Assembly (NCBI GenBank): GCA_002069945.1
Contig: MWCH01000002.1
Span: 79,164 to 143,163 of the forward strand
Reading direction: 5' to 3'
DNA from: Microgenomates group bacterium ADurb.Bin219
GTDB lineage: Bacteria > Patescibacteriota > Microgenomatia > UM-FILTER-40-11
Length of the DNA: 64,000 nucleotides
This document shows, in pieces, positions 27,276 through 59,694 of this stretch. Made by a program: the position numbers and the translations under genes. Within the stretch, counting starts at the first letter, position 1, and each line of letters starts with the position of its first letter. Under the pieces are notes generated by a model. That model saw only the letters and a program-made list of their open reading frames with translations. It was not told where the DNA came from and did no database searches.

Positions 27276-28174
27276 TTGTATCTTAAAAAACCCTGATAAT
27301 TGGTAACAGCGTCATCACTTAAGAATATTTGGCCGGTAGCTCCCCAAGCCTGAGCAACAATAATCTTGGTCTTTCCTTTTGTTTCTACAATAATGCCAAT
27401 ATGACCATATTGGGTGCTGTTTCTTACTGCCAAATCGCCAGGTTTAAGGTCATTGGCGTCGGCTGTTTTAATTTTAGTATAGTTATCGGGGCAACTGCCG
27501 TTTCCGAAAAAATCCTTGGCATTGCCGCAACTTGCCAATAGATGACCAATCGAGGCTTCAATTCCCTTGACGAAGCCGACACATTGCAAATTACCGGCAT
27601 AATCACCGGTTAGATCCACTGATTTTTTAAATTCGTTTCGGATAAGTTCCGAGTTGGGGAAAGGACCAGCCAAAAGACATTTTTCCGTTGTTCCCCAGTT
27701 AGATAAAGTGACTTCCGTTATTTCCTGAGAACAGGCGGCACTGTTGACTTTAATGCCTTCTTTTAGCCAACAAATAACTTCTTCGGCTTTGTGCCTTGTT
27801 TTTTGGCATTGGGGAGGAGAAGTGATGACTTTAACCAGGGTTTTTTGGGAAATAGGAATTTGTTTTACACCAACAAAGTCGGCGAAGCCGGCAGTGATGG
27901 TTATTGCCGCCATTATCGGCAAGAAAAAAAAGACGCCAATACCGATAAGAACAAATTTAGTGGTATTGTCCTTTTCTTTTTCTTGGGGCTTGGCCGAACG
28001 GAGAAAGTCAAGAGCTTTTACTGCCTTGGGTAATTTAGTAGCTAAACTGGTTCCTCCCGTGACAATCGGCAAAAGAACATTCTCGGCCGCGAAGCGGACA
28101 ACTCTTCCGGCTGTTTGTAAAGAAGAATCAAGGGTATTTTTAACGGAATTTTCTTCAGCCATTGTCTTTGACAA
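27272..28174 (-). CDS. Membrane-anchored CHAP-domain peptidoglycan hydrolase (VirB1-functional analogue of Gram-positive-type T4SS)
   Basis: TM FVLIGIGVFFFLPIMAAITITAGF; C-terminal CHAP-like Cys/His block (NLQCVGFVKG ... GDLAVRNSTQYGHIGIIVE); overlaps the VirB4-like gene start. Confidence 0.6.
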   Translation of the reverse strand: MSKTMAEENSVKNTLDSSLQTAGRVVRFAAENVLLPIVTGGTSLATKLPKAVKALDFLRSAKPQEKEKDNTTKFVLIGIGVFFFLPIMAAITITAGFADFVGVKQIPISQKTLVKVITSPPQCQKTRHKAEEVICWLKEGIKVNSAACSQEITEVTLSNWGTTEKCLLAGPFPNSELIRNEFKKSVDLTGDYAGNLQCVGFVKGIEASIGHLLASCGNAKDFFGNGSCPDNYTKIKTADANDLKPGDLAVRNSTQYGHIGIIVETKGKTKIIVAQAWGATGQIFLSDDAVTNYQGFLRYK

Positions 28175-30179: not shown

Positions 30180-31036
30180 GGGGTTTGTTTGGCGCTAATT
30201 TCTATTGGCGGAAAAACTTGGCCTTTCAGTTCAACTTTAATTATATCAAACTCCAAACCTTCCTTTTCCGGATAGAGGGTATAGACACCGTCCGGTAAAG
30301 GAGTGGCAATCCGGAATTGGCCCAATTTATTGGAACGGAGGGCTCTGACCGCCAGATCGTGAACATCTTTAATTTCCAAAATTACTCCGTCAATCAATTT
30401 TCCCTGCTTGTCCTTAATGACACCGTTAATAATATTAGGCAAGTCGGTAAAGAAGGGGCTGACTTTTCCCTTAGCCATTACCGGAGCAACCGCGGCGATC
30501 CTTTCTTCCAAATTGGCCGGTTTTACTTCCAGACCGTTAAGCTTTTCAATCCGGGGTTTGATTATCGGCCCGCTGGCAAAAAGAGATTGGATGTTTTGCA
30601 AAAAATCTTCTTCTTTGCGGTTATTATTGGTAGCCGATATCGGCGAACTGGCTAAATTAGGGCTTTCCCGGACCGTGGTTGCCGGCGGAACGGATGGTGT
30701 TACCGGAGAAGTTGGCGTTGTCGGCAGAGATTGGGGAGGGGGAGTCAGGTCTTTCTTTTTCCAGATGTATTGGGTAGGAGAGAAGATTGCCTTAAAAAAG
30801 GAAATAATCCAGACATCAAGAGGTCTTTCATTAATCGGCAAGAAGGCCAAACCGGCGCCCAAAAGAACAAAAAACCCGACCGCCGCGTATTTGATCAAAG
30901 ACGGCAGATCCAGGCCGTAAAAAACCAAAGCAACCAAACAACAGGCGGCCAATTTGGCAAATTGCCTTAAGGTCATATTTCCGATTAAACGGAATTCATA
31001 TGACGAAATAGGTTGTGGGACAGGATGTTGTTCCAA
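30176..31036 (-). CDS. Two-TM membrane protein (VirB3/PrgI-like position) fused to Pro/Thr-rich linker and a carboxypeptidase-regulatory-like beta-sandwich domain
   Basis: Two TMs (LAACCLVALVFYGL; AAVGFFVLLGAGLAFL) directly upstream of VirB4, as VirB3/PrgI in conjugative T4SS; linker TPPPQSLPTTPTSPVTPSVPPATT; C-terminal GVIKDKQGKLIDGVILEIKD ... GQFRIATPLPDGVYTL. Confidence 0.4.
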   Translation of the reverse strand: MEQHPVPQPISSYEFRLIGNMTLRQFAKLAACCLVALVFYGLDLPSLIKYAAVGFFVLLGAGLAFLPINERPLDVWIISFFKAIFSPTQYIWKKKDLTPPPQSLPTTPTSPVTPSVPPATTVRESPNLASSPISATNNNRKEEDFLQNIQSLFASGPIIKPRIEKLNGLEVKPANLEERIAAVAPVMAKGKVSPFFTDLPNIINGVIKDKQGKLIDGVILEIKDVHDLAVRALRSNKLGQFRIATPLPDGVYTLYPEKEGLEFDIIKVELKGQVFPPIEISAKQTP

Positions 31037-31386: not shown

Positions 31387-33234
31387 GTGAAAAATATGGC
31401 AGAAGGGGAACCAAAAGGAGTAATAGATAAATCCAAAACAGGAACTGCCTCGGAGGATAAAGGAAAAATTACGGGAATTAATCCTGGATTGGAAGCGCAG
31501 CTAAGAATTACAGAAGTACTTGCAGCCCTTCCCCCAGAGCAAAGGGGCAATTTTTTAAAGATCTTGGATAAAGAAGGTTCCATTTCGTCGGAAGGCGACA
31601 GAAGTAATAAAAGAATAAATCGTTCACTTGAAGATCTTACTGACGAAGACGAACAAGAAAGAGAAGCTTATAAATATTTACCACCAAATATTGCCGAAGT
31701 TGGGATTCCTGCCTTTACAAAAGAGTTTAACGATAGATTGTACGATTTAATAGAGAAACAACAGACTCGCAGTTTTGATGAAGATCGGCATCTTGTCTAC
31801 CCCCTTGAGATGATGATCAGGTCGTTGTGGCCGAGCAAAAGTTACAGGAAGTATAAAGGCCCAGATGGTGTTTATAGAGTAAAAGATACAAGTGAGATTA
31901 TTGATTTTGAAAAAATCCGCAAAGAATTAACAGATAAATTAAATGCCTATCGTTCCTGCCATAATGGAATCTATCTTTACCGAGACGCTGAACAAGCCGC
32001 ATCTTTAATAAGAGTTGCTCAATATTTTAAAGAAAATGTAGAAGCAGAGCTGTCAAGGAATGAGGAAATTAATAGAGCTTTTCAAAAAATAGCTTCAATC
32101 TTAGAAGACGACATCGAAGATAAGGACGTGAGACAGAAAAAAATTTCCGATTTAACTTCAATTGCTGGATTAGACAAAGATATTCCACTGTGGGCATTTA
32201 GAATGGCAAGTGGCTTAATTTGTATTTATAACGAAGCGGCAAGAGCTGATATTTCAATTAATCAAGCTGGAGATTTTTTTCAAAACAGACTTTTTAATAT
32301 GGGAAATCGTGCGGCGATTAATTGGGAAAAGATGGGGAGAGATCCAAATCCTGAATTTTGCCAATCTCTTGATTTGCGACTAAAAACCCTTTGGCAAAAG
32401 AGAATTGAGAGTCGACTGGAGAAATTAATAAAGGAAACAATGGAAGCGGAGACAGAGGTGGATAATTTAAAAAAGAGAATTGAGCTTGAAAAAGATGAAA
32501 ATAAAAAGAAAGAGCTGAAAAATAAGAAGGAGGAAATTGAGAAGAAGATTAGAGTTTCTAAAAAAGATGAAATTCTTAGAGAATTAGCGAATAAGTTTAG
32601 GGAGTATGGAATCGAATTGTCTGGCTTAACTTTTACGGACGCAGAAAAATCAAACGAAATCAATTTTGAAAAGTATTCATTAAAAAAGATTAATCTTAAG
32701 AAAATTAGTGAGGAGGATTTTTTCCAGCTCAAAAACTCTCAAGATAATGTTAAATTGCAATATTTGGATTTAGCCGACGCAGATGGAGTGAGAAAAGCAA
32801 TTTTTGATCCGACGGGATATTTGGATATGCCTAGTCCTTCCACTTTAGTAGGAATAGAAAAAGTAATGAAGCATCTCAAAGATAAAAAAAGAGCTGCGTG
32901 GTTTACAGGTGTTATTACAGAATTAGTAGGCCTTTATAAAAGTAATAAAAATTGGGTCAATGGTTTAGTTAACAATGAGGCTAAAAAATTTTTTGCCGGG
33001 GCTCCTGTTTTGGATGAAGAAGCAATTATTCGTCTCGTTAAATCTTATAGCCCTTATATTTCAGAGGAAAATATCGATCAAATTTTAATAGAGGCAATAG
33101 GGAAAAATAGAAAAGATATCGAGAACGAAGAAAAGATTAAATTTATTTTTGCTTTATTACTCGAAGCTCTCAAAGAATCTTTTAACGCCTCGTTGGCTTC
33201 CGAAGGAATCAAGATGGGGGGTTCCAAAAAATAA
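31387..33234 (+). CDS. Hypothetical Lys/Glu-rich coiled-coil protein
   Basis: 615 aa, highly charged, long predicted coiled-coil (EAETEVDNLKKRIELEKDENKKKELKNKKEEIEKKIRVSKKDE); no TM; only plus-strand gene inside the minus-strand T4SS-like cluster. Confidence 0.5.
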   Translation: MKNMAEGEPKGVIDKSKTGTASEDKGKITGINPGLEAQLRITEVLAALPPEQRGNFLKILDKEGSISSEGDRSNKRINRSLEDLTDEDEQEREAYKYLPPNIAEVGIPAFTKEFNDRLYDLIEKQQTRSFDEDRHLVYPLEMMIRSLWPSKSYRKYKGPDGVYRVKDTSEIIDFEKIRKELTDKLNAYRSCHNGIYLYRDAEQAASLIRVAQYFKENVEAELSRNEEINRAFQKIASILEDDIEDKDVRQKKISDLTSIAGLDKDIPLWAFRMASGLICIYNEAARADISINQAGDFFQNRLFNMGNRAAINWEKMGRDPNPEFCQSLDLRLKTLWQKRIESRLEKLIKETMEAETEVDNLKKRIELEKDENKKKELKNKKEEIEKKIRVSKKDEILRELANKFREYGIELSGLTFTDAEKSNEINFEKYSLKKINLKKISEEDFFQLKNSQDNVKLQYLDLADADGVRKAIFDPTGYLDMPSPSTLVGIEKVMKHLKDKKRAAWFTGVITELVGLYKSNKNWVNGLVNNEAKKFFAGAPVLDEEAIIRLVKSYSPYISEENIDQILIEAIGKNRKDIENEEKIKFIFALLLEALKESFNASLASEGIKMGGSKK

Positions 33235-33260
33235 TATCTCAAGGTAGTTGATTATTGATC

Positions 33261-34856
33261 TCAAGGAGATCTAAAGGCTCCACCAAGAATAGCTTTTGCT
33301 GTTCCTTCGGCTTGCTCTTTTGATATTGCAGCTCCTATTTTTTCTCTATCTCTTATATACTCAAAGGGTCCAATTCCTTTTTCTTTTGTGAAATTATAAA
33401 TATTCTGGGCGGTACCAGGTAGCCACCCAGCCTGTTCGGCTAATAAATTTGGACCTTTCTTGTATTTTTCGTCAAAGAGTTTTTTTACTGTTTCCGGGAT
33501 TTTATTGATATAGAGCAAAAGACCAAAGCTAATCAAGAAAGAAAATACTGAACCGAACTGTCCGCTACTGGCGAGCAATGGAGGCCCCCAAAGATTATTT
33601 AAATTGATATTGTCGGTAATCCCCTTGGCAATTATTAAATAACCGGCAATCGCCGGAAAAATCAAAAGATCAGAAAGCAAGTCGGTTATCCACTTGCCGA
33701 TTCCTCCGGATTTTGAGCCTGGAAGAGCGCTCATCATTAAGAGAATAGGAGAGAGAATGATGTTTATAATCACGCTGATATAAGCGCTTAAAAGACTTAA
33801 AAACAATTTAAAAAGAACAACGACGATAAGACACCCCAAAACAAGAACTCCGATACCAGCTCCGAGTCCAGTTATAGAAAGGGAAACAAGACTAGCGGAT
33901 AAACCACTTATTGTTCCAACTATTCCTCCTCCGAGAATACTAAGGAGGGCCCCGTCTCTTAAAACCAATCCGAAAATGGAACTAATTACTTCAGAGAAAC
34001 CATTGTTGATGAAAATATTTTGGACGTATCCAATTTCGTCAATCTTAACCAATCCGCTTATTCCGGAAACAACAACTGCCAGATTAATTAGTACATAGAC
34101 CATATCAATTAAAAAACCGGCAATTGCGTAGGAAAAAGTGACAGCAATTAGAGAAACAATAATTCCCGGTAAGGCGTTTTCTATGGTAATTACAGCCTGG
34201 GGAGAAATTTTTTTCCTGAACATTATCATTAAGCCAGTAAAGATAAAAATCAAAATATAAAAAACGTAGGCCATATTTTTAAAGGCGTTCCAAAGAGGTA
34301 AAATTGGCTGTAATCCTTTAGCTCCAATTCCTGTTTGGGCGTAGGCGGAAGGAATTCCCAAATTTTTTTTCAGACCGGCGAGATAATCAATTCCCGAGGC
34401 GGGAGGTTTAAGATAAAGAGATGCAATCAAATTTGAGGCTAGAGATATCGCGCCACCTGAAGGGAGAGAGCTCACTCCACTTTGACCGACTGAGGTCTTT
34501 CCAATAAGACTTAAACTTGCACTGTTAATCAGATTGTTGAAAATCCGAACAGAAAATCTTTGGTCCGAAACTTCCTCCTCTGGAAGATCGTAATATTCTT
34601 TTTGAAATTCTATTAAAGATTGTGGCTCAAACCAATATTTGCTTTGACGATTTTCAACACAAACGCTGGAAACACAAAGCCAATCCTCTGGGTTTTTACC
34701 ATAAAGAGTAACGCAGTCATTTTCGTTTTTACAATCTTGAACATAGCCCGCAGTTACAGAAGCATGGACTTTTAAGGAGAAATTTATTGAAAAATAAAAA
34801 AGAAGTAAAAGTAAAAAAAGAAAAAAATTTTTTTTAGAAAAACTTTGGGCAGACAT
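33261..34856 (-). CDS. Polytopic membrane protein, VirB6/TrbL-like by topology and context, with Cys-containing N-terminal extracytoplasmic domain
   Basis: Signal/TM FFLFLLLLLFYFSINFSL, Cys-rich ecto-region (CKNENDCVTLYGKNPEDWLCVSSVC), then at least 7 Gly-rich TM helices; part of the VirB4 cluster. Confidence 0.45.
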   Translation of the reverse strand: MSAQSFSKKNFFLFLLLLLFYFSINFSLKVHASVTAGYVQDCKNENDCVTLYGKNPEDWLCVSSVCVENRQSKYWFEPQSLIEFQKEYYDLPEEEVSDQRFSVRIFNNLINSASLSLIGKTSVGQSGVSSLPSGGAISLASNLIASLYLKPPASGIDYLAGLKKNLGIPSAYAQTGIGAKGLQPILPLWNAFKNMAYVFYILIFIFTGLMIMFRKKISPQAVITIENALPGIIVSLIAVTFSYAIAGFLIDMVYVLINLAVVVSGISGLVKIDEIGYVQNIFINNGFSEVISSIFGLVLRDGALLSILGGGIVGTISGLSASLVSLSITGLGAGIGVLVLGCLIVVVLFKLFLSLLSAYISVIINIILSPILLMMSALPGSKSGGIGKWITDLLSDLLIFPAIAGYLIIAKGITDNINLNNLWGPPLLASSGQFGSVFSFLISFGLLLYINKIPETVKKLFDEKYKKGPNLLAEQAGWLPGTAQNIYNFTKEKGIGPFEYIRDREKIGAAISKEQAEGTAKAILGGAFRSP

Positions 34857-34925
34857 GGTATTTAAAGTTTAAACAAATATATTTTAAAATTCAATCGCGA
34901 CTTACCAACAATGAACAATAAATCA

Positions 34926-37907
34926 TTAAAGAGTGCAATTTACAGCAAGTTGGTCATACCAGTATTTTAAATTTTTAGGGAAATCCGGATTAAGGGTAAA
35001 AGAATTACAAGGATAATGACCTTCGCTGTAATTACACATAAACCTTTCAAAATTTGTTTCCGAATCATAGTTTCTAAAAACGCAATCCAATTGAGATTCA
35101 ATTTCAAATTCTCCCGCCGTGCAACCAAGTCCCCAGTCTCCAACAGCATTTGCTCCCGATTCCTCAACCCAAAGGGCGGTCAAAAAGGCCGGATTCCAGT
35201 CGTGTCTTTTTGCTTGAGTTTGAACAACCTCCCATTTTTGCGCAATTTGGCTAGTGGGCCAGTTTTTAAGAACGTATTTACTAACACAATCCTTATTGGC
35301 CGCGGAAACAGAAATTGTCGGATCGCGGAAGGGTAAGTTATAAGTAAGAACTCCGGGTTGGCCGGGAGTTGTTGTCGGCGATCCGGGGTTGGGCGTTCCG
35401 GTTGAGCTTTCGGAATAAGGAGCTAGTAATTTTTGGGTAATAAACTCCTTGACGTTTATTAAGGTTCCCAGTTTGTAAAATAGCAGGCGGAGGGAACCGG
35501 TTATTGTCCCGCCGGTAGAGGAACCGGCGACTTTAACTTCTTGGATACTGGCCGGAGTCTTGGTAATTTGATTAACTTCAATTTTTAAATCGGCTTGGGA
35601 TTCACCGGCAACTTCTCTAAAAGCTTGATTGATTTCACTGTCCGGTTGTTTGTTTTTTTGGGAAGAGGGAACAAAAATATTGAAAAAGCCTTGTCCTCCA
35701 ACCGTATTTTCAATTATTTTGTCCAAAAAAGGAACTTTATTAATACTATTTATATTGGTATCGGTAAAGTCTTTGGTTTTAACAGGACTTTCCGGGACAC
35801 AACAATTGGTCTCGGATCTAATTTTGTTGCCGTTTTCTTCATACCAACAAGTTGCGCCCGGATGACATTCCAAACAGCGATAATAAGCGACGGCATAAGC
35901 TCCGCTTCCGGTCATACGGTCAAAAACATAATTTCCTCCGTCGCCGCAGCATTTGTTTGAAGGATCGCTGATTCCGTAATATCTTCTTATTTCATCGGAA
36001 GAATAAGTTTTACAACTTTTTCCGGCGTCGTTTTCCCATTCTCTCGTTCCTGATAATTGGATATCCTGTTTTCCCGGATCTTGAATTTCCGGCTTAACAC
36101 AGATTTTGTCACCAAACCCGGACCTTGTTTCCTTATTACTGGTTTGAACGGGAACGGAATTAGTAACCGGACAAACAGTCGCCGGCAAAACTTGTCCTAA
36201 AGAGTTTTTTACTCCTCGGACAATTCCCGCTTGAGTTGCCGGGACGGAATCGGGGACCAGCATTTTCTTTATCAGCTCGGTCGTCCGGTAAAGACGATAA
36301 ATTTCCGGAACGGAAGTATTGATTGTATTTTCCGCATCTTGAATTCCGCTGCCGTAAAAGGAAATATGGCCCTTGCTTTCTTCGTTGGCAAAAAGGGGGA
36401 CTTGAGGCCAGACCTTTTCCTTAAAGTCCAATTCGGCTTGGGTAAGAATTTTTCCGTTTTTGTTTTTTTCCGTAATGGTTGAAAAGATACTAACGATTTC
36501 CGCCGGTCCTTTTCCTTCAATTGTAAAAGACAAGTAACGGCCTTTGTAATTGGGATTGGCAATCTCGTTTAAAAATTCTAATTTCAGTTGGTTTTGTAAT
36601 TCAACCGGCGCCAGTTTTTCCAAAACGCCGCTTGTTTTTATTACCTGACCCGGAGTTTGGGTAATTTTTTGCTTCGGATTGTCTACCAGAGAACCCAGGA
36701 AATATTTATTCAGGGTTTTTGCAAAAGGAATGGAAAAATTGGAGACCTCAATTTTTCCCTGAAAATCAAAACTGAGGCAATCGCCGTCCGATTTCCGGTA
36801 GGTGGCGGATTCCGGCAGATTTAGGGAATCTTTACTTAATTCTTCTCCGAAAGTTGTTACCTCTTTTATTGGTTTGCAAAAGGAAACGGCGGAGCCGCAT
36901 TCGTTGCATTCCGATTCGTCGGTAACGTAGTAGCTGTATTTTTTTCCGGGACAAAGAGTAAGACTTCCTTTTGGCCCCGATTGAGAATAAGAAGAAGGGG
37001 TTGTTTTTCCGTCGGGAGCGCTTTTTAAAAGATTAATTACGTCTTCCGGTGAAAACAAGTCCCAAGTATGACCAACCTCTCCGGCCAAGTCGTAGGCGGG
37101 AACAGCAAACATGGTGACGTTACCGTTTTTTATAAATTCATTGACGTAACGGTAAAGAGGAGAATCTGACGAAGGGGGTTGTTTAAAATAAAAATTATTG
37201 CCGCCGGTTCCCGATTCAACCCCAAAGATTGGCTTGCCAGGAACGCCCATTTGGCTTAAAAGCTCTTGGGCCTTTTGTGGGTTTCTGTGTTTTTCTCCGC
37301 AAAGGGGGGCTCCGCAATCTTCTTCGCCGAAATCGTAAAGACTTAGGGCGATTCCATAGAATTGGTTAAAAAAAGAGCTGCCAAGATTGGCGACATAGTT
37401 ATCAAAACTAGGATTAGAGGGATTTATCATCGGAGAAAGAAGTAAAACCTTGGTATCAAGAATCCCATTTGTTGAGAATTGAGAAGAAAGAGTTTGGATG
37501 TATTTTTTTAAGGTTGACTCGTCAATATAATCATTGCTTCCGGTTTGGTTTGGTTCATTCCAGGGCATAAAATAAATTTTGTTTGAGCTGGGAATACTGG
37601 CCAAGGCGGCCGCCCATTGTTTAGCCCAGTTTTCATCAGGAGCGGTTCCCGGGTAATGACCCCTGATTACTAAGTTTATTTCCGGATGATTTTCTATCAT
37701 CTGGGCAATTTTGTCGGCGTCGCCCGGACAGGGCATAATGACAACCCAGCCGCCCGCTCCGACAATACCGGCGGCCGCATCAAAATCACCAAAATGGTCG
37801 CCAATATTAATGCCGGCTTTATTTTGAGCCAAAATTGGCCGGGGATTAAAAATTAAAAAGGAAAAAAGAAAGAAAAGAAAAACAAGAATTTTAGGCAGGG
37901 TTTTCAT
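34926..37907 (-). CDS. Large secreted protein: N-terminal glycoside-hydrolase-like (clan GH-A type WNEPN motif) region, Cys-rich middle, C-terminal lytic transglycosylase (SLT)-like domain
   Basis: Signal peptide MKTLPKILVFLFFLFSFLIFNPRPILAQ; motif KIYFMPWNEPNQ; C-terminal FLTALWVEESGANAVGDWGLGC resembles the SLT catalytic Glu-Ser block. Confidence 0.45.
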   Translation of the reverse strand: MKTLPKILVFLFFLFSFLIFNPRPILAQNKAGINIGDHFGDFDAAAGIVGAGGWVVIMPCPGDADKIAQMIENHPEINLVIRGHYPGTAPDENWAKQWAAALASIPSSNKIYFMPWNEPNQTGSNDYIDESTLKKYIQTLSSQFSTNGILDTKVLLLSPMINPSNPSFDNYVANLGSSFFNQFYGIALSLYDFGEEDCGAPLCGEKHRNPQKAQELLSQMGVPGKPIFGVESGTGGNNFYFKQPPSSDSPLYRYVNEFIKNGNVTMFAVPAYDLAGEVGHTWDLFSPEDVINLLKSAPDGKTTPSSYSQSGPKGSLTLCPGKKYSYYVTDESECNECGSAVSFCKPIKEVTTFGEELSKDSLNLPESATYRKSDGDCLSFDFQGKIEVSNFSIPFAKTLNKYFLGSLVDNPKQKITQTPGQVIKTSGVLEKLAPVELQNQLKLEFLNEIANPNYKGRYLSFTIEGKGPAEIVSIFSTITEKNKNGKILTQAELDFKEKVWPQVPLFANEESKGHISFYGSGIQDAENTINTSVPEIYRLYRTTELIKKMLVPDSVPATQAGIVRGVKNSLGQVLPATVCPVTNSVPVQTSNKETRSGFGDKICVKPEIQDPGKQDIQLSGTREWENDAGKSCKTYSSDEIRRYYGISDPSNKCCGDGGNYVFDRMTGSGAYAVAYYRCLECHPGATCWYEENGNKIRSETNCCVPESPVKTKDFTDTNINSINKVPFLDKIIENTVGGQGFFNIFVPSSQKNKQPDSEINQAFREVAGESQADLKIEVNQITKTPASIQEVKVAGSSTGGTITGSLRLLFYKLGTLINVKEFITQKLLAPYSESSTGTPNPGSPTTTPGQPGVLTYNLPFRDPTISVSAANKDCVSKYVLKNWPTSQIAQKWEVVQTQAKRHDWNPAFLTALWVEESGANAVGDWGLGCTAGEFEIESQLDCVFRNYDSETNFERFMCNYSEGHYPCNSFTLNPDFPKNLKYWYDQLAVNCTL

Positions 37908-37980: not shown

Positions 37981-38346
37981 TTATTGCCCGGTAACAATCT
38001 CAAAATTAAGAACATCAACGCCGGTAAATTCCTTAATCAAAAGAAAGATAATCCAGGCGCCGAGAATCACAACCAATCCGATAATGGCGTAAGTTAAAGT
38101 CTGTTGGGCTGCCTGGGATTTTTTGGGATCTCCGCCGCTGGTTAAATATTTAAAGCCGCCGACCAGAAACATTAAAAAAAGCGCAATTCCGGCAAAACGA
38201 ACAACAATATTCAAAATGTTGGCAAAAATACACTCAAATCCTTTAATGGTAGCGACCTTAATTGGGTCGCCGCCGCCGGGAGGAGTAATTTCGGTATAAC
38301 AGCCGGTTTTCCAGTCTTGAGCCAATAAAATCTTTTCTGCCGCCAT
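37981..38346 (-). CDS. Pilin-like two-TM protein, paralog 1 (VirB2/TrbC-type topology)
   Basis: TM1 FLMFLVGGFKYL, loop TSGGDPKKSQAAQQ, TM2 LTYAIIGLVVILGAWIIFLLI; shares [ST]-[GA]-G-D-x-K ... I-x-x-A-[LI]-I-G core with 7 neighbours. Confidence 0.6.
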   Translation of the reverse strand: MAAEKILLAQDWKTGCYTEITPPGGGDPIKVATIKGFECIFANILNIVVRFAGIALFLMFLVGGFKYLTSGGDPKKSQAAQQTLTYAIIGLVVILGAWIIFLLIKEFTGVDVLNFEIVTGQ

Positions 38347-38399
38347 AAAATTATTTCTTCCCTTAACGAAACCTTTTTCTTGATTTTTCTAAAGGTAAG

Positions 38400-38762
38400 T
38401 TATTTCGGTGTCGGAATACTAATCGGACCGCTGATTACTGTTATTTTGAAGAATTTTTCCAAAATAAGCATAATTGCCCAGGACGCGGCGACAATTCCCA
38501 ATCCGATTAAGGCGTTGGTAATTTGTTTGCCGGCCGCTTCGGTCTTTTTTGAATCACCGCCGGACATAATCCATTGCAAACCACCGAGCAGTAAATAGAA
38601 AAAGGTTGCCAGAGCGGCAATGGTCATCAATAATCTGACAAGAGCGCTGATAACCGAGCCCAAATCCGTCCAACCGACACCCGGTTCCGCAACTTGCGAC
38701 AAAGGAATTCCCGAAATTTGTTGAGCTTGTGCAATCAAATTAAAAAAACTAACTCCTAACAT
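38400..38762 (-). CDS. Pilin-like two-TM protein, paralog 2
   Basis: LLGGLQWIMSGGDSKKTEAAGKQITNALIGLGIVAASWAI conserved core. Confidence 0.6.
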   Translation of the reverse strand: MLGVSFFNLIAQAQQISGIPLSQVAEPGVGWTDLGSVISALVRLLMTIAALATFFYLLLGGLQWIMSGGDSKKTEAAGKQITNALIGLGIVAASWAIMLILEKFFKITVISGPISIPTPK

Positions 38763-38867
38763 TTATTTTTTGTTTTTCACCCCCTTTTATTTTATATTTA
38801 TTTTTTTAATTGTTACCTAAAGACCAGTGTATTTTTTAAAAACATTCGTGTCAATAAGTAAGAAAGA

Positions 38868-39191
38868 TTAAAGGGTGGGAATAATAAATCCGGAACCGAG
38901 GATATCCAAACCGACAACAATACCGACAACTTTAATAATTGCCCAGGCGCTAAAAAGAATTATCATGCCGATAATGGCGCCGGAAATTTGTTTCCCTGCC
39001 GCCTCCGCCCGTTTTGAATCTCCACCACTGGTAATCCACATTACCCCTCCCCAGACAAGATAAAAGATCAAGGCAATTGAACCGATAATCATAAAAGCCC
39101 TAACAAAAACGACGATTGCCTTCGGCAGCCATTCGCCGACGGTTTTGTCTTTAGAATTGGGGATTAAGGGATTATAAATTTGTTTAGCCAT
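38868..39191 (-). CDS. Pilin-like two-TM protein, paralog 3
   Basis: LVWGGVMWITSGGDSKRAEAAGKQISGAIIGMIILFSAWAI conserved core. Confidence 0.6.
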   Translation of the reverse strand: MAKQIYNPLIPNSKDKTVGEWLPKAIVVFVRAFMIIGSIALIFYLVWGGVMWITSGGDSKRAEAAGKQISGAIIGMIILFSAWAIIKVVGIVVGLDILGSGFIIPTL

Positions 39192-39194
39192 AAA

Positions 39195-39674
39195 TTATTT
39201 CCAAATATTTTTTAAAAATTCAAAAGGATTAAGAAGTTCAATTCCCAAAACCATTCCTACTAATTCAATGATAAAAATCGCGGAAACAACAATGACCAGG
39301 CCGATTAAAGAATTGGTAATTTGTTTTTGAGCTCCTTCTATGGATTTTTGGTCGCCGCCGGCCGTAATCCACTTTAAAGCAGCGGTAAAAAATTGAAGGA
39401 TAAAGTAAAGAAAGGCAAAAAGAGTAATCAGGCCGATTCCGATAGAAATGATCCTGTTTAAAAGATCCAAAGGTAAAGTAATATTTGTGCCGATTAGGTT
39501 CTTGAAATTTTCACCTAAAGGACCTAGCCCTTCAAGACGGCCCAGCTCTTTTGCACCGGGAGCCAAAGTTGGCGTTTGAGAATAAGCAGGCTTAGAAAAA
39601 CCCGTAATCAAAAATAAGAAAAAGGTAAAAGCAAAAAAATTTTTATTGAAAAATGTTTTTCTATTGTGGCCCAT
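39195..39674 (-). CDS. Pilin-like two-TM protein, paralog 4 (with cleavable-looking signal peptide and longer N-terminal region)
   Basis: Signal FFAFTFFLFLITGFSKPAYSQ; core AALKWITAGGDQKSIEGAQKQITNSLIGLVIVVSAIFI. Confidence 0.6.
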   Translation of the reverse strand: MGHNRKTFFNKNFFAFTFFLFLITGFSKPAYSQTPTLAPGAKELGRLEGLGPLGENFKNLIGTNITLPLDLLNRIISIGIGLITLFAFLYFILQFFTAALKWITAGGDQKSIEGAQKQITNSLIGLVIVVSAIFIIELVGMVLGIELLNPFEFLKNIWK

Positions 39675-40086
39675 AAATTTTTGGATTCAAAATGGCAGTA
39701 GCATCGCCGAAAACAATAAAGCCGATAATCGCAGCCGTAACCAGAGAGCCGGCCATAATTACCAAACCGACTACCGAGTAAATAATTTTATTGGTAGCTT
39801 GCTCTATTTTTTTGGAATCGCCGCCTGCGGAGATATAAGTTAGACCGGCCAATAAAATGTTAACAAAAGTAAAGATGCCACCGCCCACAATAAGAAGTTT
39901 TATTAAAACATTGGCAAAGCCGATTAATCCTCCTTTGCCGCCAACCCCAATATCTCCCCATTTTTCAACTCCGGGCGGCGGAGAAATTTTTCCGATGACA
40001 TCGGCAATATCGGCAATGAGCAGTTTTTCCGTCATTTTCCCAAGATATTTAAGCCGGTAACTATTTGAATAATTTGAATTATCCAA
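39661..40086 (-). CDS. Pilin-like two-TM protein, paralog 5 (true start more likely the internal Met at 40035, giving an ATGA overlap with the next paralog)
   Basis: Core LLAGLTYISAGGDSKKIEQATNKIIYSVVGLVIMAGSL; the 40086 start would overlap paralog 6 by 55 nt. Confidence 0.55.
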   Translation of the reverse strand: MDNSNYSNSYRLKYLGKMTEKLLIADIADVIGKISPPPGVEKWGDIGVGGKGGLIGFANVLIKLLIVGGGIFTFVNILLAGLTYISAGGDSKKIEQATNKIIYSVVGLVIMAGSLVTAAIIGFIVFGDATAILNPKIYGPQ

Positions 40087-40367
40087 TAGCTGGCAAAAAT
40101 AATGCCAAACCCGACCAAAGCAGAGGTGACCGCCTGCTGGCCCTGAGAAGTTTTTTTCGGGTCACCCCCTCCAGCTCCCATAATAATGCCGAGGCCTCCG
40201 AATAACAAGAGGAAAAACAAGAGAACCCCGGCCAAAATAAAAGCGTTTTTTAAAAAAATGGAAACAAGACCACCTAAAGATTGATATTCCGTTACTCTAC
40301 CGATCGGAACAGAAGGTTTGAGCAAAAGTTCATCGCCGATGTTAACGGCAGACAAAAGGTCAGACAT
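40032..40367 (-). CDS. Pilin-like two-TM protein, paralog 6
   Basis: Core FGGLGIIMGAGGGDPKKTSQGQQAVTSALVGFGIIFASYWI. Confidence 0.6.
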   Translation of the reverse strand: MSDLLSAVNIGDELLLKPSVPIGRVTEYQSLGGLVSIFLKNAFILAGVLLFFLLLFGGLGIIMGAGGGDPKKTSQGQQAVTSALVGFGIIFASYWIIQIIQIVTGLNILGK

Positions 40368-40519: not shown

Positions 40520-41785
40520 ATGAAGGATAAAAAAGAAAAAAATTTACCTGAAGGAACTTTGGTTCCTAACCATTTGGCGATAATTTGTGACGGCAACCGG
40601 CGTTGGGCGAGAGCGAGGGGGAAACCGGCTTTTGAAGGCCACCGGCGCGGTTTTGATATTACCCCTTCACTTTCCCGGGCTTGCCGCGATTTTGGAATTC
40701 ATACTTTAACCTTTTGGGTTTTTTCAACGGAAAATTGGGACCGGCCTAAAGAAGAAATTGCTTTTTTGATGAAGAAATTTGAAGAATTTATTGATGTTCA
40801 TCTTAAAGAAGCCAAAAAAAGCGAAGTTCGGATAATTCACTTGGGACGGAAAGACCGGATTCCTTCTTCTTTGGCAAAAAAAATTATTAAGGCAGAGAAA
40901 GAAACAAAAGAAAACAAGAAATTCGTTTTAAATATTGCCTTGGATTACGGCGGCCGGGATGAAATTTTAAGGGCAATCGGAAAAATGACTGGAGAAAAAT
41001 TAACCAAAGAAAGTTTAAGTGAAGAAACCTTTCAAAAGTATTTGGACACCGGTTCCCAACCATTTCCCTATCCTGATTTGATTATCAGGCCTTCGGGCGA
41101 ACAAAGGACAAGCGGGCTTTTAATTTGGCAGGGAGCTTACAGCGAAACTTATTGGCTTCCTGATCATTTCCCGGAGTTAACCCCGGAAATTTTAAAAGAA
41201 GCTTTAATAGATTTTTCCAAAAGAAGGCGCCGTTTCGGCGGCAACGATAACGTTCCCCGCGTTAAGTTTTCTCCGGAAAAACTGGCCAAGTTGGAGAGCG
41301 TCTATTTACAAGAGGGCGATTGGGAGAATCAGGAAAAAAAGGAAGAAAAAATCGGGAATTGGTTAAAAGAGCTTTACGGTCTAGATCTCCAAAATTCTTC
41401 GTCCGCGGCCCAATTCTATTGTGAAGGGTTAATTCTTGCCGGAAAGGAAGATTGGGCCAAGGCAGAAGAAAAAATGAAAGATTTTTATCAAATAATTAAG
41501 GAAGCAACCGGTTATGTTTTTAGCCCGGAAGCGGTCGCCAAATTGGAAGTTGATTTAAAAAAGACCGAAAAGAAAACCAGGGAGAGCTTGGATAAAGCTG
41601 AATTGGAAAAAGCCTTGCGGAATTATTACGGCGAGATTTACCGGCTTTCCGACCTGCAATCGCGGCGGACGGCTTATTATAAAACCCTGGCGATAACAGC
41701 TTTTAATTCGGCCGGAGACAATTCGGCGACAGCAGAAAAATATTTGGTTAAAACCTACGAGACACTTCGTGAAGTTGCTTCCTAA
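40520..41785 (+). CDS. uppS: Undecaprenyl-diphosphate synthase (cis-prenyltransferase) fused to a ~180 aa C-terminal helical domain of unknown function
   Basis: UppS motifs HLAIICDGNRRWA, FWVFSTENWDRPKEEI, LNIALDYGGRDEI, IRPSGEQRTSGLLIWQGAYSE in the first ~240 aa; 421 aa total. Confidence 0.8.
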   Translation: MKDKKEKNLPEGTLVPNHLAIICDGNRRWARARGKPAFEGHRRGFDITPSLSRACRDFGIHTLTFWVFSTENWDRPKEEIAFLMKKFEEFIDVHLKEAKKSEVRIIHLGRKDRIPSSLAKKIIKAEKETKENKKFVLNIALDYGGRDEILRAIGKMTGEKLTKESLSEETFQKYLDTGSQPFPYPDLIIRPSGEQRTSGLLIWQGAYSETYWLPDHFPELTPEILKEALIDFSKRRRRFGGNDNVPRVKFSPEKLAKLESVYLQEGDWENQEKKEEKIGNWLKELYGLDLQNSSSAAQFYCEGLILAGKEDWAKAEEKMKDFYQIIKEATGYVFSPEAVAKLEVDLKKTEKKTRESLDKAELEKALRNYYGEIYRLSDLQSRRTAYYKTLAITAFNSAGDNSATAEKYLVKTYETLREVAS

Positions 41786-41802
41786 GGTATAATATTTTTG
41801 CT

Positions 41803-42321
41803 GTGGTTTCGGAAAATACTTCTATCGATAAAGCGACGTTAAACCGTCTGAAACAATATATCGCCAAAAGGGTCCATCAGCCGGAAGAGGCGGAGGAAAT
41901 TTTTCAGGATGTTTTGGTTGATACGGTTGACAGTCTGCCTCTTTTTCGCGGAGAATCAGCTCTTTTTACTTTCATTTGCGGGATTGCGAACCATACGATT
42001 GTTGATTATTACCGGAAAAAGAAATTAAAGACGCTTCTTTTTTCCCGATTCCCTTTTTTAGAGGAAGTCGCTTCTCAAGCTCTCGGACCGGACGAAAAAT
42101 TGGAAAAGGAAGAATTGAGAAAGGAGGTGAAAATTGTTTTGGCTGCCCTGAGCGAAGGATATCGGGAGGTTTTGCGACTTAAATATATAGACGGAATGAC
42201 CGTCAACCAAATTGCCAAGAAATTCAATACAAGCTTTAAGTCGGTTGAATCAAAATTATCAAGGGCACGCAGTTCGTTCAGAAAAATTTGGTTGATTGGT
42301 AAATCAAAATTTAAAATTTAA
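41803..42321 (+). CDS. ECF-type RNA polymerase sigma factor
   Basis: Region 2 (EEAEEIFQDVLVDTVDSL ... IANHTIVDYYRKK) and region 4 HTH (LRLKYIDGMTVNQIAKKFNTSFKSVESKLSRARSSFRK). Confidence 0.75.
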   Translation: MVSENTSIDKATLNRLKQYIAKRVHQPEEAEEIFQDVLVDTVDSLPLFRGESALFTFICGIANHTIVDYYRKKKLKTLLFSRFPFLEEVASQALGPDEKLEKEELRKEVKIVLAALSEGYREVLRLKYIDGMTVNQIAKKFNTSFKSVESKLSRARSSFRKIWLIGKSKFKI

Positions 42322-42727
42322 AATGAAAAATTACAATTCAAAATTAAAAATTAAAGAAGCGTCGGGAAAGATCTTCAAGACAATTTTTTTATTAGTAATT
42401 CGCGAATTTTATCTTTTTTTTAGAAATATATACGGTTTGGCTTGTCATCCTTTCTTGACGATAAGGAGGATTAGAAGAGAAAAAGATTATTTTCAGGTTT
42501 TATTGGTTTTTGGACTGCCGGTATATTTTTGGCTCGCCGCCATTGTCTCTTTGGCGGTTTTAAGATTTTTAATTGGGATTAGGGGCAGGTTGGGTTGGAT
42601 TGCTCATTCTTTACTTTGGTTGGTTTCCGGTCTTACGGGCTTAATTTGCTTTTATCTTTTTTATTGGCTTTGGTTAACTTATTTTAATCAGAAAAAAATC
42701 AAAGAAGGAGGCCAAAGTGCCGGTTGA
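42296..42727 (+). CDS. Hypothetical membrane protein (3 TM), possible cognate anti-sigma/partner of the ECF sigma
   Basis: Overlaps the sigma gene end; TMs VLLVFGLPVYFWLAAIVSLAVL, IAHSLLWLVSGLTGLICFYLFYWLWL. Confidence 0.35.
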   Translation: MVNQNLKFKMKNYNSKLKIKEASGKIFKTIFLLVIREFYLFFRNIYGLACHPFLTIRRIRREKDYFQVLLVFGLPVYFWLAAIVSLAVLRFLIGIRGRLGWIAHSLLWLVSGLTGLICFYLFYWLWLTYFNQKKIKEGGQSAG

Positions 42728-42962: not shown

Positions 42963-43277
42963 CTATTTCAAAATTGAAATTCCCAACACCACTTCAACAA
43001 TCTGGATCACCCAGTAGGAGACAAAAAGGATAAAGAAACCGACAACGGCATTGGTAATTGATTTTCCGGCACTTTCTTTCGCTTTGGGATCATTGGCTCC
43101 GGTCATCATTTGAAAACCGGCCATTATTAAAGATACAAGAAGGATAATTCCGGCAAGAACATAAACAATTTTTAATCCTTCGGAAATAATTTCACCGAGA
43201 TTTAAATCTCCTCCTAAACCGATCGCTCCCTTGGTCGGGAAGGCGCTTGCTTTAATATCGTTGAAATTAATTGCCAT
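42963..43277 (-). CDS. Pilin-like two-TM protein, paralog 7
   Basis: Core IMAGFQMMTGANDPKAKESAGKSITNAVVGFFILFVSYWVI. Confidence 0.6.
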   Translation of the reverse strand: MAINFNDIKASAFPTKGAIGLGGDLNLGEIISEGLKIVYVLAGIILLVSLIMAGFQMMTGANDPKAKESAGKSITNAVVGFFILFVSYWVIQIVEVVLGISILK

Positions 43278-43297: not shown

Positions 43298-44194
43298 TTA
43301 TAAACCGGGAATTCCCAATATCTTAACTCCAATTAGTTCCAGCAAAAAGACGGAAAAAATTATAAACAATAAGCCGATCAAGGCGGAGGTGATTGTTTCT
43401 TTAGCGGCTTGAACTCCTTTGGGGTCGCCGGCAGAAGTAATTATCCGGAAACCGCCGAAGATAACCAAAAAGAAAGCGATTCCGCCGGCAACAGCAATTA
43501 TTCTTTTTAAAAGCCAGGCAGTAAATTCGCTAAAATCACCGGTTGGGATACAACCCAAGGCAGTCCAAGCGCCGCCTTTATAGTTCTTGTCTGGAGTTAC
43601 ACATTTTCTACAATCTTCGTTACATTCCCTCGGGCAATCGAAATTATCAACCTTACATCCGCAGACGTCACAATGTGGAGCAACGAGAGCATTATCTCCT
43701 CCACAAATCCAATTGCCAGTTTTTCCTGAAGTGTGAAGGCATTTACATTCTTTCGGACACGTTTGATCATTTGGTCCGGAACACGGATTTCCACAGCCGG
43801 GAGCCAAAGCCGGGATAACCCCTAAAGGACAACAACACGCATTTCCGTTTGCCACGGTAAAAGTTTTATAGATACACTGTGGATTAAGACTGGAACATGA
43901 TTTCATTGTAAATTTTACTTCTTGTCCCTGCTCACAGTACGAACCAGCAGATGTTGGACAACAGCACTGAACCTCTGTAGTAATTAACCAACCCTTTGTT
44001 GCTCCGGAACGCTTGCATCCTACAGGGCAGCTTTCGGTGGGTTTAATCCAACGCACGGTATCAGTCGAGTTACAAGAAAACGAACCGTAGGTAGTAGTCG
44101 TTATGAATGGTAGTTTAAAAAGAGGAGAAAAAATTAATAAACTAAAAATTAGAAGAATAATAAATATTATTGGGGAAATTTTAAGACATTTCAT
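43298..44194 (-). CDS. Secreted Cys-rich (about 30 Cys) domain fused to a C-terminal pilin-like two-TM module (paralog 8)
   Basis: Signal IIFIILLIFSLLIFSPLF; Cys-rich CxxC/CC-rich ecto-domain (CCCPTSAGSYCEQG ... CPKECKCLH ... CDVCGCKVDNFDCPRECNEDCRKC); C-terminal FGGFRIITSAGDPKGVQAAKETITSALIGLLFIIFSVFL. Confidence 0.6.
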   Translation of the reverse strand: MKCLKISPIIFIILLIFSLLIFSPLFKLPFITTTTYGSFSCNSTDTVRWIKPTESCPVGCKRSGATKGWLITTEVQCCCPTSAGSYCEQGQEVKFTMKSCSSLNPQCIYKTFTVANGNACCCPLGVIPALAPGCGNPCSGPNDQTCPKECKCLHTSGKTGNWICGGDNALVAPHCDVCGCKVDNFDCPRECNEDCRKCVTPDKNYKGGAWTALGCIPTGDFSEFTAWLLKRIIAVAGGIAFFLVIFGGFRIITSAGDPKGVQAAKETITSALIGLLFIIFSVFLLELIGVKILGIPGL

Positions 44195-59547: not shown

Positions 59548-59694
59548 AAAGTAATATTACTACAAATGAAATTTACAATTTAGAAGGCATGATGTATAAT
59601 TTTGAGCGTAGACTAGTTGAGAATTGACCAGAGGTCTTTGAAAATTAAATAAACAAATTTGTACATTGTAACTTATCAATGGTACATTTTTTAA

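Follow-up and report, generated by a model that had tools for sequence, protein, structure and literature searches.

An ancient family of T4SS_pilin hairpin genes arrayed upstream of virB4 in a Microgenomatia bacterium

Here, we examined a 64,000-nucleotide stretch of the genome of Microgenomates group bacterium ADurb.Bin219 (the window), in which six adjoining genes occupy the minus strand between 37981 and 40367. A sequence-only reading had described them as pilin-like paralogs of 107-159 aa, and their number, strand, position and lengths are borne out by the open reading frames (ORFs). Numbered p1 to p6 by order of transcription, they are:

40032-40367, minus strand: p1, 111 aa, first gene of the array, T4SS_pilin-family hairpin protein
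39661-40086, minus strand: p2, T4SS_pilin family, 141 aa with a TTG start or 124 aa (39661-40035) with an ATG at 40035
39195-39674, minus strand: p3, 159 aa, Sec-type signal peptide followed by a variable N-terminal segment and a pilin hairpin
38868-39191, minus strand: p4, 107 aa, T4SS_pilin family, beginning 3 nt 3′ of p3
38400-38762, minus strand: p5, 120 aa, T4SS_pilin family, candidate major subunit
37981-38346, minus strand: p6, 121 aa, T4SS_pilin family, final gene of the array

The proposed ATGA overlap of p1 and p2, which depends on an internal start at 40035, is seen at 40035/40032 ('ggaaaATGAcgg'), and the same start was chosen by independent gene calls in related contigs, where the orthologs have 124 and 120 aa. 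With a further overlap of 14 nt between p2 and p3 and a spacing of 3 nt between p3 and p4, the genes p1 to p4 form an overlapping or abutting series and are, by implication, co-expressed; judged by this arrangement, the overlaps would be of the type typical of translational coupling. The gap between p4 and p5 contains a further element:

38826-38854, minus strand: promoter-like site TTGACA-17-TACACT in the 105-nt p4-p5 gap, followed by the Shine-Dalgarno sequence AAAGGGGGTG upstream of p5

This site matches the consensus at 10 of 12 positions and is joint best in 18 kb (three sites reach that score). Its TTGACA element and the Shine-Dalgarno sequence AGGAGGTG are conserved in the related loci L001, L003 and L004, and the site, a consensus match, may function as a promoter. 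Because it has a promoter-like site of its own and a strong Shine-Dalgarno sequence, p5 is a candidate for the major subunit.

Two additional paralogs lie outside the interval first described:

42963-43277, minus strand: p7, 104 aa, seventh paralog (local HMM, 72.6 bits)
43298-44194, minus strand: p8, 298 aa, C-terminal pilin hairpin (PF18895 match at residues 232-286) preceded by an N-terminal signal or anchor and a Cys-rich ectodomain of about 200 aa

Run over the ORFs of the window, the local family HMM gave precisely eight matches, p1 to p8. The added pair lies 2.6 kb upstream of the six-gene array, with uppS, an ECF sigma factor and a membrane protein in between; this 6+2 layout is also present in L001, L002 and L004, and in locus L020 p7 is contiguous with p1. 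Neither these two paralogs, nor the secretion-system neighbours and the published description of such arrays, had featured in the sequence-only reading.

The six array genes are a real and ancient family. That their similarity might be merely compositional is ruled out by BLASTP, leave-one-out HMMs and Pfam. With composition correction, BLASTP connects most pairs of array paralogs at E 1e-3 to 1e-16 (p4 and p5 share 44% identity, E 1e-16), p1 and p2 being the sole non-significant pair; the nearest paralog of p1 is p7 (41%, E 1e-14). Leave-one-out HMMs scored each array gene at 46-87 bits (p1, 60.8 bits); 1000 shuffled versions of the protein in question reached about 11 bits at most. Pfam PF18895 (T4SS_pilin; gathering score 26.6 bits) was matched by all eight paralogs, by five of them above the cut-off (p6 41.9, p4 41.8, p5 35.0, p7 33.8 and p2 26.7 bits; four of the six within the array). 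The other three (p8 24.9, p3 23.3 and p1 20.8 bits) are joined to the rest by pairwise BLASTP, p1 and p3 also by the leave-one-out HMM. All 22 database homologs of p5 likewise carry PF18895, and no other Pfam pilin family was matched among the six array proteins. The label pilin-like is apt if T4SS_pilin (VirB2-like) PF18895 is meant and wrong if it is taken to mean type IV pilins, since the prepilin leader G↓F-x-x-x-E is absent. T4P pilins and T2SS pseudopilins were rejected as candidates, with the class III leader G↓F(M)-x-x-x-E in none of the eight proteins and two TM helices in every one.

A conserved core of about 40 aa had been proposed; its conservation holds, and its length proved to be about 65-70 aa, comprising TM1, loop and TM2. 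Within the alignment of the array paralogs, G-G-D-x-K and one downstream G are invariant in all six. Hydropathy gives two TM windows in each paralog; the loops scored, seven in all, have net charges of 0 to +1, with +1 in six. The suggestion that the G-D-x-K loop might sit between two helices agrees with the AlphaFold2 model of p5 (pLDDT above 90), in which helices 32-66 and 71-105 enclose a 4-residue SGGD loop (67-70). A fold search with the hairpin returned nothing significant (best E 1.2; the A. pernix conjugative pilin 8dfu, E 4.6); F-ATPase subunit c and the archaeal conjugative pilin scored similarly poorly, the helical hairpin being a generic fold. The pilin profile likewise gave no usable match in a PDB sequence search.

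For each array paralog, related contigs have a 1:1 ortholog at the corresponding position; ω is 0.02-0.33, which denotes purifying selection (p1, 99% identical to its L001 ortholog, 0.02; p2 0.09; p3 0.33). We relied on orthologs because dN/dS across the paralogs, the comparison originally suggested, is uninformative at saturated dS (>1). Identity is 54-74% between orthologs versus 25-30% between paralogs (global alignment). Gene order in L020 is collinear, and across distant Microgenomatia arrays a p8-like gene comes first and a p6-like gene last; in many Microgenomatia loci the array is opened by p8-like long fusions. Within the array we saw no sign of DNA repeats, gene conversion or recent duplication, and with DNA repeats absent, a cassette system driven by recent duplication or gene conversion was rejected.

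The early observation that N-termini vary around a conserved core is true between paralogs and between orthologs alike: pooled over orthologs, ω is 0.36 for N-termini versus 0.08 for the core, an approximately fourfold faster N-terminal evolution. The signal peptide attributed to p3 is also evident by eye (MGHNRK, a hydrophobic run, then PAYS↓Q) and is kept in three orthologs; these orthologs carry a Cys-rich insert of 25-30 aa that p3 itself lacks. By inspection, a clear signal peptide is found in p3 and p8 only, p5 possibly has a short one ending in AQA, and p1, p2, p4, p6 and p7 have hydrophilic N-tails. A long cleaved leader of the VirB2/TraA type is, by the same inspection, absent from most paralogs.

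Downstream of the array lies a set of genes that can be related to type IV secretion systems (T4SSs), continuing to dnaN and dnaA:

34926-37907, minus strand: 993-aa secreted protein directly downstream of the array, N-terminal hydrophobic signal, strain-variable
33261-34856, minus strand: 531-aa polytopic membrane protein, signal peptide, ectodomain of about 170 aa, at least six TM segments, conserved position
31387-33234, plus strand: 615-aa soluble, charged, coiled-coil-like protein on the opposite strand within the locus, no TM segments
30176-31036, minus strand: possible PrgI/VirB3-like membrane protein, 286 aa, two TM segments, C-terminal CarboxypepD_reg-like domain
28155-30179, minus strand: VirB4-like T4SS ATPase, 674 aa, Pfam TraG P-loop and AAA_10, 7.8 kb downstream of the array
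27272-28174, minus strand: bitopic CHAP-domain cell-wall hydrolase, 300 aa, one TM segment, VirB1/PrgK-like role
26856-27275, minus strand: 139-aa bitopic membrane protein at the operon end, one TM segment
25714-26859: dnaN, adjoining the T4SS locus
24041-25381: dnaA, near dnaN; rnpA also adjoins

The VirB4 assignment is strong (NF045971 CD1110 family, 395.7 bits against a cut-off of 325), and the same protein matches the Mycoplasma ICE VirB4 model (Mbov_0397) at E 1e-78. The CHAP hydrolase scores 33.8 bits for PF05257 (cut-off 26), and the 286-aa protein matches PF12666 PrgI weakly, at E 1.6e-5 and 25.8 bits, narrowly missing the cut-off of 27. From its architecture and position, the 531-aa protein may be VirB6/PrgH-like; it has no family match and no usable PDB match, and a genome scan with it as query found no relatives. 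No family match was obtained for the 139-aa protein, which possibly occupies a VirB8-like position, or for the 615-aa protein, which shares 53% aa identity with its L001 counterpart, VirB4 sharing 98%. The 993-aa protein has no Pfam, NCBIfam or PDB match; its gene is syntenic in L001 and L004, and the segment at 37.0-37.5 kb is without a blastn match to L001. In this locus it is the exposed parts of the paralogs, along with the secreted and membrane proteins next to the array, that evolve fast.

Among the window ORFs scanned (most, not all, of those of at least 150 aa), neither a coupling protein (T4CP) nor a relaxase was found. A mobile conjugative element was considered and rejected, as no relaxase, T4CP or integrase was found beside the locus and housekeeping genes lie on both flanks. 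VirB4 relatives recovered by a genome scan with a VirB4 alignment are Microgenomatia MAGs, from Shapirobacteria, Amesbacteria, Levybacteria and WWE3; in the closest named genomes VirB4 identity is only about 72-74%, and about half of the related loci retrieved again have a pilin array linked to virB4. Taken jointly with the assembly proposed below, we consider it reasonably probable that this is a chromosomal, origin-proximal, monoderm-type (MPF_FATA-like) T4SS of an ultrasmall bacterium (Patescibacteria, class Microgenomatia).

Arrays of this kind have been described before. Near virB4 and dnaA in Patescibacteria, 441 arrays of 2-11 VirB2-like pilins are known, mainly in Microgenomatia and Saccharimonadia, with array and virB4 linked in 1135 assemblies (Quiñonero-Coronel et al. 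2025, PMC12102498). The window array resembles these in its PF18895 domain, in its six members (or eight with p7 and p8), which fall within the published range, and in paralog identity (mean 25% in the published arrays versus 25-30% here, by global alignment). Common to both are an MPF_FATA-like virB4 lying downstream (in the window with a possible PrgI/VirB3-like protein, below the cut-off), the closeness of dnaA, dnaN and rnpA, no relaxase or coupling protein found nearby, and a place among the array-rich Microgenomatia. The window differs in its organism, in the 6+2 split by uppS, ECF sigma factor and membrane protein, and in that its array is known from genes alone. The array of six pilins in Southlakia epibionticum ML1 is essential (Wang et al. 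2023, PMC10633639; PMC12857230), and Tn-seq of that array suggests that the knockout of each single paralog is lethal. In other Patescibacteria, T4SS pilins rank with the most strongly expressed genes of unknown function (PMC10936435). A T4SS pilus has never been seen in any Patescibacteria, and the role of the system has been called 'completely unknown' (PMC11665869). Since such arrays were catalogued in 2025 (PMC12102498) and found essential in a cultivated relative in 2023 (PMC10633639), the locus is an ordinary further example of a known feature, and nothing about it is categorically new.

The resemblance to classical conjugative pilins seen here is one of architecture. Like VirB2/TrbC/TraA proteins (PF04956; T-pilus, F-pilus), the paralogs are small, contain a pair of hydrophobic helices with a short basic loop between them, are encoded beside VirB3- and VirB4-type genes and share an N-out/C-out topology (predicted here); they differ in their distinctive GGDxKK loop and monoderm host, and in that many paralogs take the place of one major pilin plus VirB5. 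Aligned by hhalign to seven real VirB2/TrbC proteins, the family reached a probability of 0.45%. PF04956 was not matched by any of the eight window proteins at E ≤0.1; weak matches occurred in three of 29 family relatives (best E 0.005), and p6 matched CagC at E 0.024. A weak link is to the Mycoplasma ICE pilin-like family NF045849 (Mbov_0395), whose 80-position model is matched nearly end to end by seven of the eight paralogs (p7 36.1 bits, E 3.9e-9; p6 28.8; p5 26.4), all under the cut-off of 40. Judging by these profile scores, the paralogs are likely homologs of this family and not equivalog members of it. The Mbov_0395 family is encoded with the Mbov_0397 VirB4, whose model the window VirB4 likewise matches, and the two matches fit a hairpin protein native to MPF_FATA-type systems. 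The Mycoplasma gene is single-copy, lies on a mobile element and serves conjugation, whereas here several copies lie on the chromosome, and no relaxase was found in the window. A tblastn search of PLSDB plasmids with p4 and p7 was empty, so no Gram-positive plasmid homolog was found by that route. Tandem diverged pilin paralogs whose exposed parts vary also occur in the effector-translocating T4SSs of Bartonella and Anaplasma (cited in PMC12102498); these pathogens are diderms and their pilins genuine VirB2 homologs, with antigenic variation as the presumed role, whereas the window paralogs are ancient, position-conserved and under purifying selection.

On present evidence, we think it more probable than not that p1 to p8, as T4SS_pilin-family two-helix hairpins, belong to a Microgenomatia T4SS and are non-redundant parts of one assembly. 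Each hairpin would insert so that both termini point outward and the basic loop faces the cytoplasm, directed by a Sec signal peptide in p3 and p8 and by a short N-tail in the rest. The VirB4 ATPase and a VirB6-like platform might then extract the subunits and build from them a pilus-like fibre or conduit, which would cross the wall where it is opened by the CHAP hydrolase and make contact with a host cell. The paralogs would thereby act as non-redundant parts, not interchangeable variants, with p5 as the likely major subunit and the Cys-rich p8 and p3 type as likely tip or adhesive subunits. Against a pilus stand the failure to observe one in Patescibacteria, the undetected VirB2 homology, the generic fold and the mostly absent leaders.

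Natural single-ORF fusions carry 2-15 tandem hairpins, which by 'Rosetta stone' logic argues that hairpins co-assemble. Polypeptides with 6-15 hairpins are awkward for subunits extracted from the membrane singly. For the natural six-hairpin fusion P0023, only the secondary structure of the AlphaFold2 model is credible (pLDDT 52, pTM 0.29), and a model this weak does not decide between ring and fibre. A more far-reaching proposal, which we advance tentatively and would not expect to hold in full, is that this monoderm builds one heteromeric T4SS structure (fibre or stacked ring) from paralogs that are all obligate and cannot replace one another, with a Cys-rich tip of the p8/p3 type, p5 as the bulk and p6 in a fixed position, and that the hairpin gene is native to MPF_FATA systems, not borrowed from Gram-negative T4SSs. 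Classical VirB2 pili, in contrast, are homopolymers. The heteromeric part draws on the Microgenomatia-wide positional orthogroups, the predicted translational coupling and the 2-15-hairpin fusions, the MPF_FATA origin on the link to the Mycoplasma ICE family.

A different account would make the hairpins integral-membrane parts of a channel (a ring or bundle, c-ring-like or VirB3-like) and not an extruded pilus, so that 'pilin' would be a misnomer based on topology. It would explain why VirB2 homology goes undetected in a generic hairpin fold, and why up to 15 hairpins can share one ORF, as with fused ring-forming hairpins; conjugative pili, too, are stacked hairpins, so the fusions are compatible with a fibre. 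The weak homology to the Mycoplasma ICE family also speaks for it: Mycoplasma hosts are wall-less, and a conjugative pilus is not known from them. Gram-positive T4SSs, moreover, are generally without pili (PMC12102498). We nevertheless regard it as unlikely, as the variable, Cys-rich or signal-bearing N-termini (p3, p8) suggest exposure to the outside, and eight paralogs along with very high expression elsewhere (PMC10936435) suit a polymer better than a stoichiometric part.

The sequence-only reading had itself offered functional specialisation and surface variation as explanations, and only the former is favoured here, because of the 1:1 orthologs, purifying selection, saturated dS, lack of repeats or conversion and the coupling of p1 to p4. 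Use of the paralogs singly, as interchangeable major pilins for antigenic or host-range variation (cf. VirB2 of Bartonella and Anaplasma), would fit the fastest divergence falling in exposed N-termini, the internal promoter-like site ahead of p5 and the strain-to-strain variation of T4SS surface components. It appears quite improbable when positional orthologs are kept across genera at ω 0.02-0.33, the overlapping or abutting p1 to p4 imply co-expression, several hairpins are fused in single natural proteins, and repeats, gene conversion, recent duplication and any invertible element or recombinase beside the array are absent. Tandem genes for small two-TM proteins are also the layout of holins and immunity genes, and the paralogs could in principle be unrelated proteins (holin-like, bacteriocin/immunity, T4P/competence pilins) that merely sit beside T4SS genes. 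This we hold to be very improbable indeed: none of the eight has the prepilin leader, PADLOC defence models gave no match, lysin or bacteriocin genes do not adjoin, and pilin arrays are again linked to virB4 in about half of the retrieved related loci and in the 1135 published assemblies (PMC12102498).

In conclusion, this locus provides a clean and complete Microgenomatia example with syntenic relatives both near and far, and adds to the published record 1:1 orthologs and their ω, N-terminal rates, the site before p5, the fusions and the weak homology to a Mycoplasma ICE family. The paralogs are old and individually conserved, and they probably co-assemble. A large part of bacterial diversity belongs to the Patescibacteria, which live in attachment to other microbes; in the sole species tested, the T4SS with its pilin array is essential. 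For this system, our results narrow the hypotheses to be weighed, both between a heteromeric structure and variant cassettes and between a fibre and a membrane ring.

The sequence-only reading described six consecutive minus-strand ORFs as a tandem array of pilin-like paralogs, and all six are present as described. An HMM built from these genes (p1 to p6, in transcription order) and run against all stop-to-stop ORFs of the window matched exactly two further paralogs, p7 and p8, which lie upstream beyond a three-gene block on the opposite strand.

Pilin paralogs of the window and the block that separates p7 from p1
43298-44194, minus strand, p8, 298 aa, matched by the HMM built from p1-p6
42963-43277, minus strand, p7, 104 aa, matched by the HMM built from p1-p6
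40520-42727, plus strand, three-gene block between p7 and p1: uppS, an ECF-type sigma factor and a 143-aa membrane protein
40032-40367, minus strand, p1, 111 aa
39661-40035, minus strand, p2, 124 aa from the ATG in the ATGA overlap with the p1 stop
39195-39674, minus strand, p3, 159 aa
38868-39191, minus strand, p4, 107 aa
38400-38762, minus strand, p5, 120 aa
37981-38346, minus strand, p6, 121 aa

The ATGA overlap of p1 and p2, pointed out earlier, is seen in the sequence, and independent gene calls on related contigs place the start identically; the alternative, a mechanical ORF from a TTG at 40086, has 141 aa. Downstream, the p2 and p3 reading frames share 14 nt, and gaps of 3, 105 and 53 nt follow p3, p4 and p5, respectively. 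In the p4-p5 gap lies a promoter-like site, TTGACA-17-TACACT, which matches the consensus at 10 of 12 positions and is one of three sites sharing the top score in 18 kb. Between it and p5 stands a strong Shine-Dalgarno sequence, and both elements are kept in relatives, which hints that p5 may be expressed separately and perhaps more highly. The ECF-type sigma factor could be a candidate regulator of the pilin genes, and the 143-aa membrane protein, whose gene overlaps the sigma gene, may be an anti-sigma factor. This block is kept in the related loci L001 and L004; in L020, p7 and p1 are contiguous. Its uppS product (421 aa in total) carries a C-terminal extension of ~180 aa.

The conserved core proposed for the six genes is borne out by MAFFT alignment, although its length is ~65-70 residues rather than 40 aa; G-G-D-x-K and a downstream G are invariant. 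The similarity is more than compositional: in BLASTP between paralogs with composition-based statistics, nearly every pair has an E value between 1e-3 and 1e-16, and the gene left out of each leave-one-out HMM scores 46-87 bits, where 1000 shuffles reach ~11 bits at most. All eight paralogs match PF18895 (T4SS_pilin), five of them above the gathering threshold, as do 22 of 22 database homologs of p5. An exhaustive profile search returned ~59,000 cluster representatives (50% identity clusters) at E 1e-3 or better. The N-terminal segments of p1-p6 also share an invariant proline, mostly in a P-x-G or PPG context, ~10-20 residues before the first transmembrane helix (P23 of p6 in the alignment; window 38270-38290), and it could be part of a processing or packing motif; near it, the p6 N-terminus has a second loop-like 'GGGDP' motif.

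In the predicted structure, the conserved loop does lie between two helices. The AlphaFold2 model of p5, computed from an alignment of its homologs, is a helical hairpin (residues 32-66 and 71-105) in which the four residues SGGD form the loop; pLDDT exceeds 90 across residues 41-100, and order is poor in the first 30 residues and in the C-terminal tail. Hydropathy gives two transmembrane windows in each paralog. Since the loop region carries a net charge of 0 to +1, and of +1 in all but one of the seven paralogs scored, the positive-inside rule would place the loop in the cytoplasm and both termini outside. The signal peptide noticed in p3 is of Sec type and conserved in three orthologs. In p8, an N-terminal hydrophobic anchor or signal precedes a Cys-rich ectodomain of ~200 aa and a C-terminal hairpin. 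More distant homologs of p5 have clear signal peptides, and p5 itself may have a short leader ending AQA. A type IV prepilin leader is absent from all eight paralogs; type IV pilins and unrelated small membrane proteins were both rejected as identities for the array.

The layout of six plus two genes is common to L001 and L002 (VirB4 98-99% identical) and to L004 (VirB4 77%), and in related contigs a single clear ortholog occupies the position of each window paralog. Orthologs in L004 are 54-74% identical, compared with a global-alignment identity of 25-30% between paralogs, and ortholog ω (dN/dS) is 0.02-0.33. In L020 (VirB4 67%) the order p7-p1-p2-p3-p4-p5-p6 is collinear; more distant Levybacteria-like loci have arrays of four to five genes, with a long p8-like fusion first and a p6-like gene last. 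Saturated dS between paralogs and the absence of DNA-level repeats mean that no recent duplication or gene conversion has taken place. The N-termini evolve faster than the core: when the six genes are pooled and compared with L001, identity is 74% versus 96% and ω 0.36 versus 0.08; the N-termini show no net positive selection in this comparison. Directly after the signal peptide, the p3 orthologs compared (L001:8997-9566, L003:1556-2134 and L004:9064-9603) carry a Cys-rich module of 25-30 aa, C-x-x-W-C…C-N-x-C-x-x-C, which the window p3 has lost. The Cys-rich ectodomain of p8 is of similar flavour and much larger.

Downstream of the array, the same strand encodes a secreted protein of 993 aa; a 531-aa protein whose signal peptide, ectodomain and six or more transmembrane segments make up a VirB6/PrgH-like architecture; a 286-aa protein whose PrgI/VirB3-like match is weak (25.8 bits; cut-off 27); a VirB4 ATPase of the CD1110 family (NF045971, 395.7 bits; cut-off 325); a bitopic CHAP hydrolase; and a 139-aa bitopic protein. 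Within this T4SS cluster, the opposite strand encodes a soluble protein of 615 aa; dnaN, dnaA and rnpA come directly after the cluster. Among the window ORFs scanned, no coupling protein, relaxase or integrase was associated with the locus. Housekeeping genes make up the remaining window (yidC, obg, an aminoacyl-tRNA synthetase, dnaG, rpoD, tmRNA and tRNAs). At 59641-59985 (plus strand), a group I intron seems to split a tRNA gene: Rfam RF00028 matches 59641-59941 (plus strand, 64.8 bits), the tRNA 5' half (TCCCCTGTAGCTCAATGGTAGAGCGGCTCC…) runs from ~59697, and the 3' part, with T-arm, acceptor 3' strand and CCA (…GGTTCGAGTCCTCTCGGGGGAGCCA), extends to ~59985. The split gene, absent from the ARAGORN calls, adjoins a gene for a large serine recombinase (59960-61564, minus strand).

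Overall DNA identity between the window and L001 is 92-96%, with a strain-variable island at window 31400-37500. There the 615-aa and 531-aa genes fall to 68-83% DNA identity, and for part of the 993-aa gene blastn finds nothing in L001. Protein identity is 53% for the 615-aa and 69% for the 531-aa product (dS of the latter gene 1.42), as against 98% for VirB4. Genes p3-p6 are 84-88% identical in DNA, and the p8 ectodomain is lower. These drops indicate that divergence is concentrated mainly in exposed components of the machine. The 615-aa protein, though soluble, diverges as much and could be a candidate T4SS substrate or effector.

This arrangement has already been published for Patescibacteria. 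[quoted passage not shown] 2025, PMC12102498). [quoted passage not shown] 2023, PMC10633639); according to a 2025 review, these pilins, six in number, are conserved in structure and divergent in sequence, and a pilus-like conduit is offered as speculation (PMC12857230). In other Patescibacteria, T4SS pilins rank with the most strongly expressed genes of unknown function (PMC10936435), and PF18895 dominates freshwater-specific structure clusters (bioRxiv 10.1101/2025.04.23.650224). Relatives of the window VirB4 among GTDB species genomes belong to Ca. Shapirobacteria, Amesbacteria, Levybacteria, WWE3 and 'Microgenomates' (best identity 74%), which places the organism in the class Microgenomatia of the Patescibacteria. 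Many of the closest VirB4 relatives, the top-ranked one included, sit in records titled 'uncultured Gammaproteobacteria bacterium', 'Bathyarchaeia' or 'Clostridia' (L005, L010, L012, L014, L016 and others); given the Microgenomatia-like character of the T4SS loci in them, the records are probably third-party MAGs under a wrong label.

Beyond the family, fold, linkage, conservation and selection pattern demonstrated here for the pilin array, we infer that the hairpins would insert N-out/C-out and that the VirB4 ATPase and VirB6-like platform would extract and assemble them into a pilus-like fibre or conduit, crossing a wall opened by the CHAP hydrolase. The paralogs would be specialised and co-assemble, with p5 as the bulk subunit and p8 and p3-type proteins as adhesive or tip subunits. 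Their use one at a time as variant cassettes is disfavoured by positional orthology, purifying selection and translational coupling, and also by fusions: single ORFs with 2-15 tandem PF18895 hairpins are common among the top profile-search matches and imply that hairpins co-assemble. One of them, P0023 (L092:1777-3435, 552 aa), has a signal peptide and six hairpins, no in-frame stop under the standard code, and a place inside an array of ordinary pilin genes.

The same fusions are awkward for a pilus that adds one subunit at a time, and would suit a membrane-embedded ring or channel formed by the hairpins, with no fibre. That alternative also draws on the missing VirB2 homology, as none to true VirB2/TrbC was detectable by sequence and profile searches, and on a link to Mycoplasma ICEs: seven of the eight paralogs match the 'Mbov_0395 pilin-like' model, below cut-off (best E 3.9e-9), and the window VirB4 matches the neighbouring ICE VirB4 model. 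On these matches, the hairpin gene may be native to MPF_FATA systems. The AF2 model of P0023 is of low confidence and too poor to tell fibre from ring.

In conclusion, the sequence-only reading of the array was essentially right, and the array adds one more case to a class that is already published and widespread. Its interest lies mainly in the unsolved function of that class, in Patescibacteria called 'completely unknown' (PMC11665869), and in the leads provided by positional orthology and hairpin fusion.
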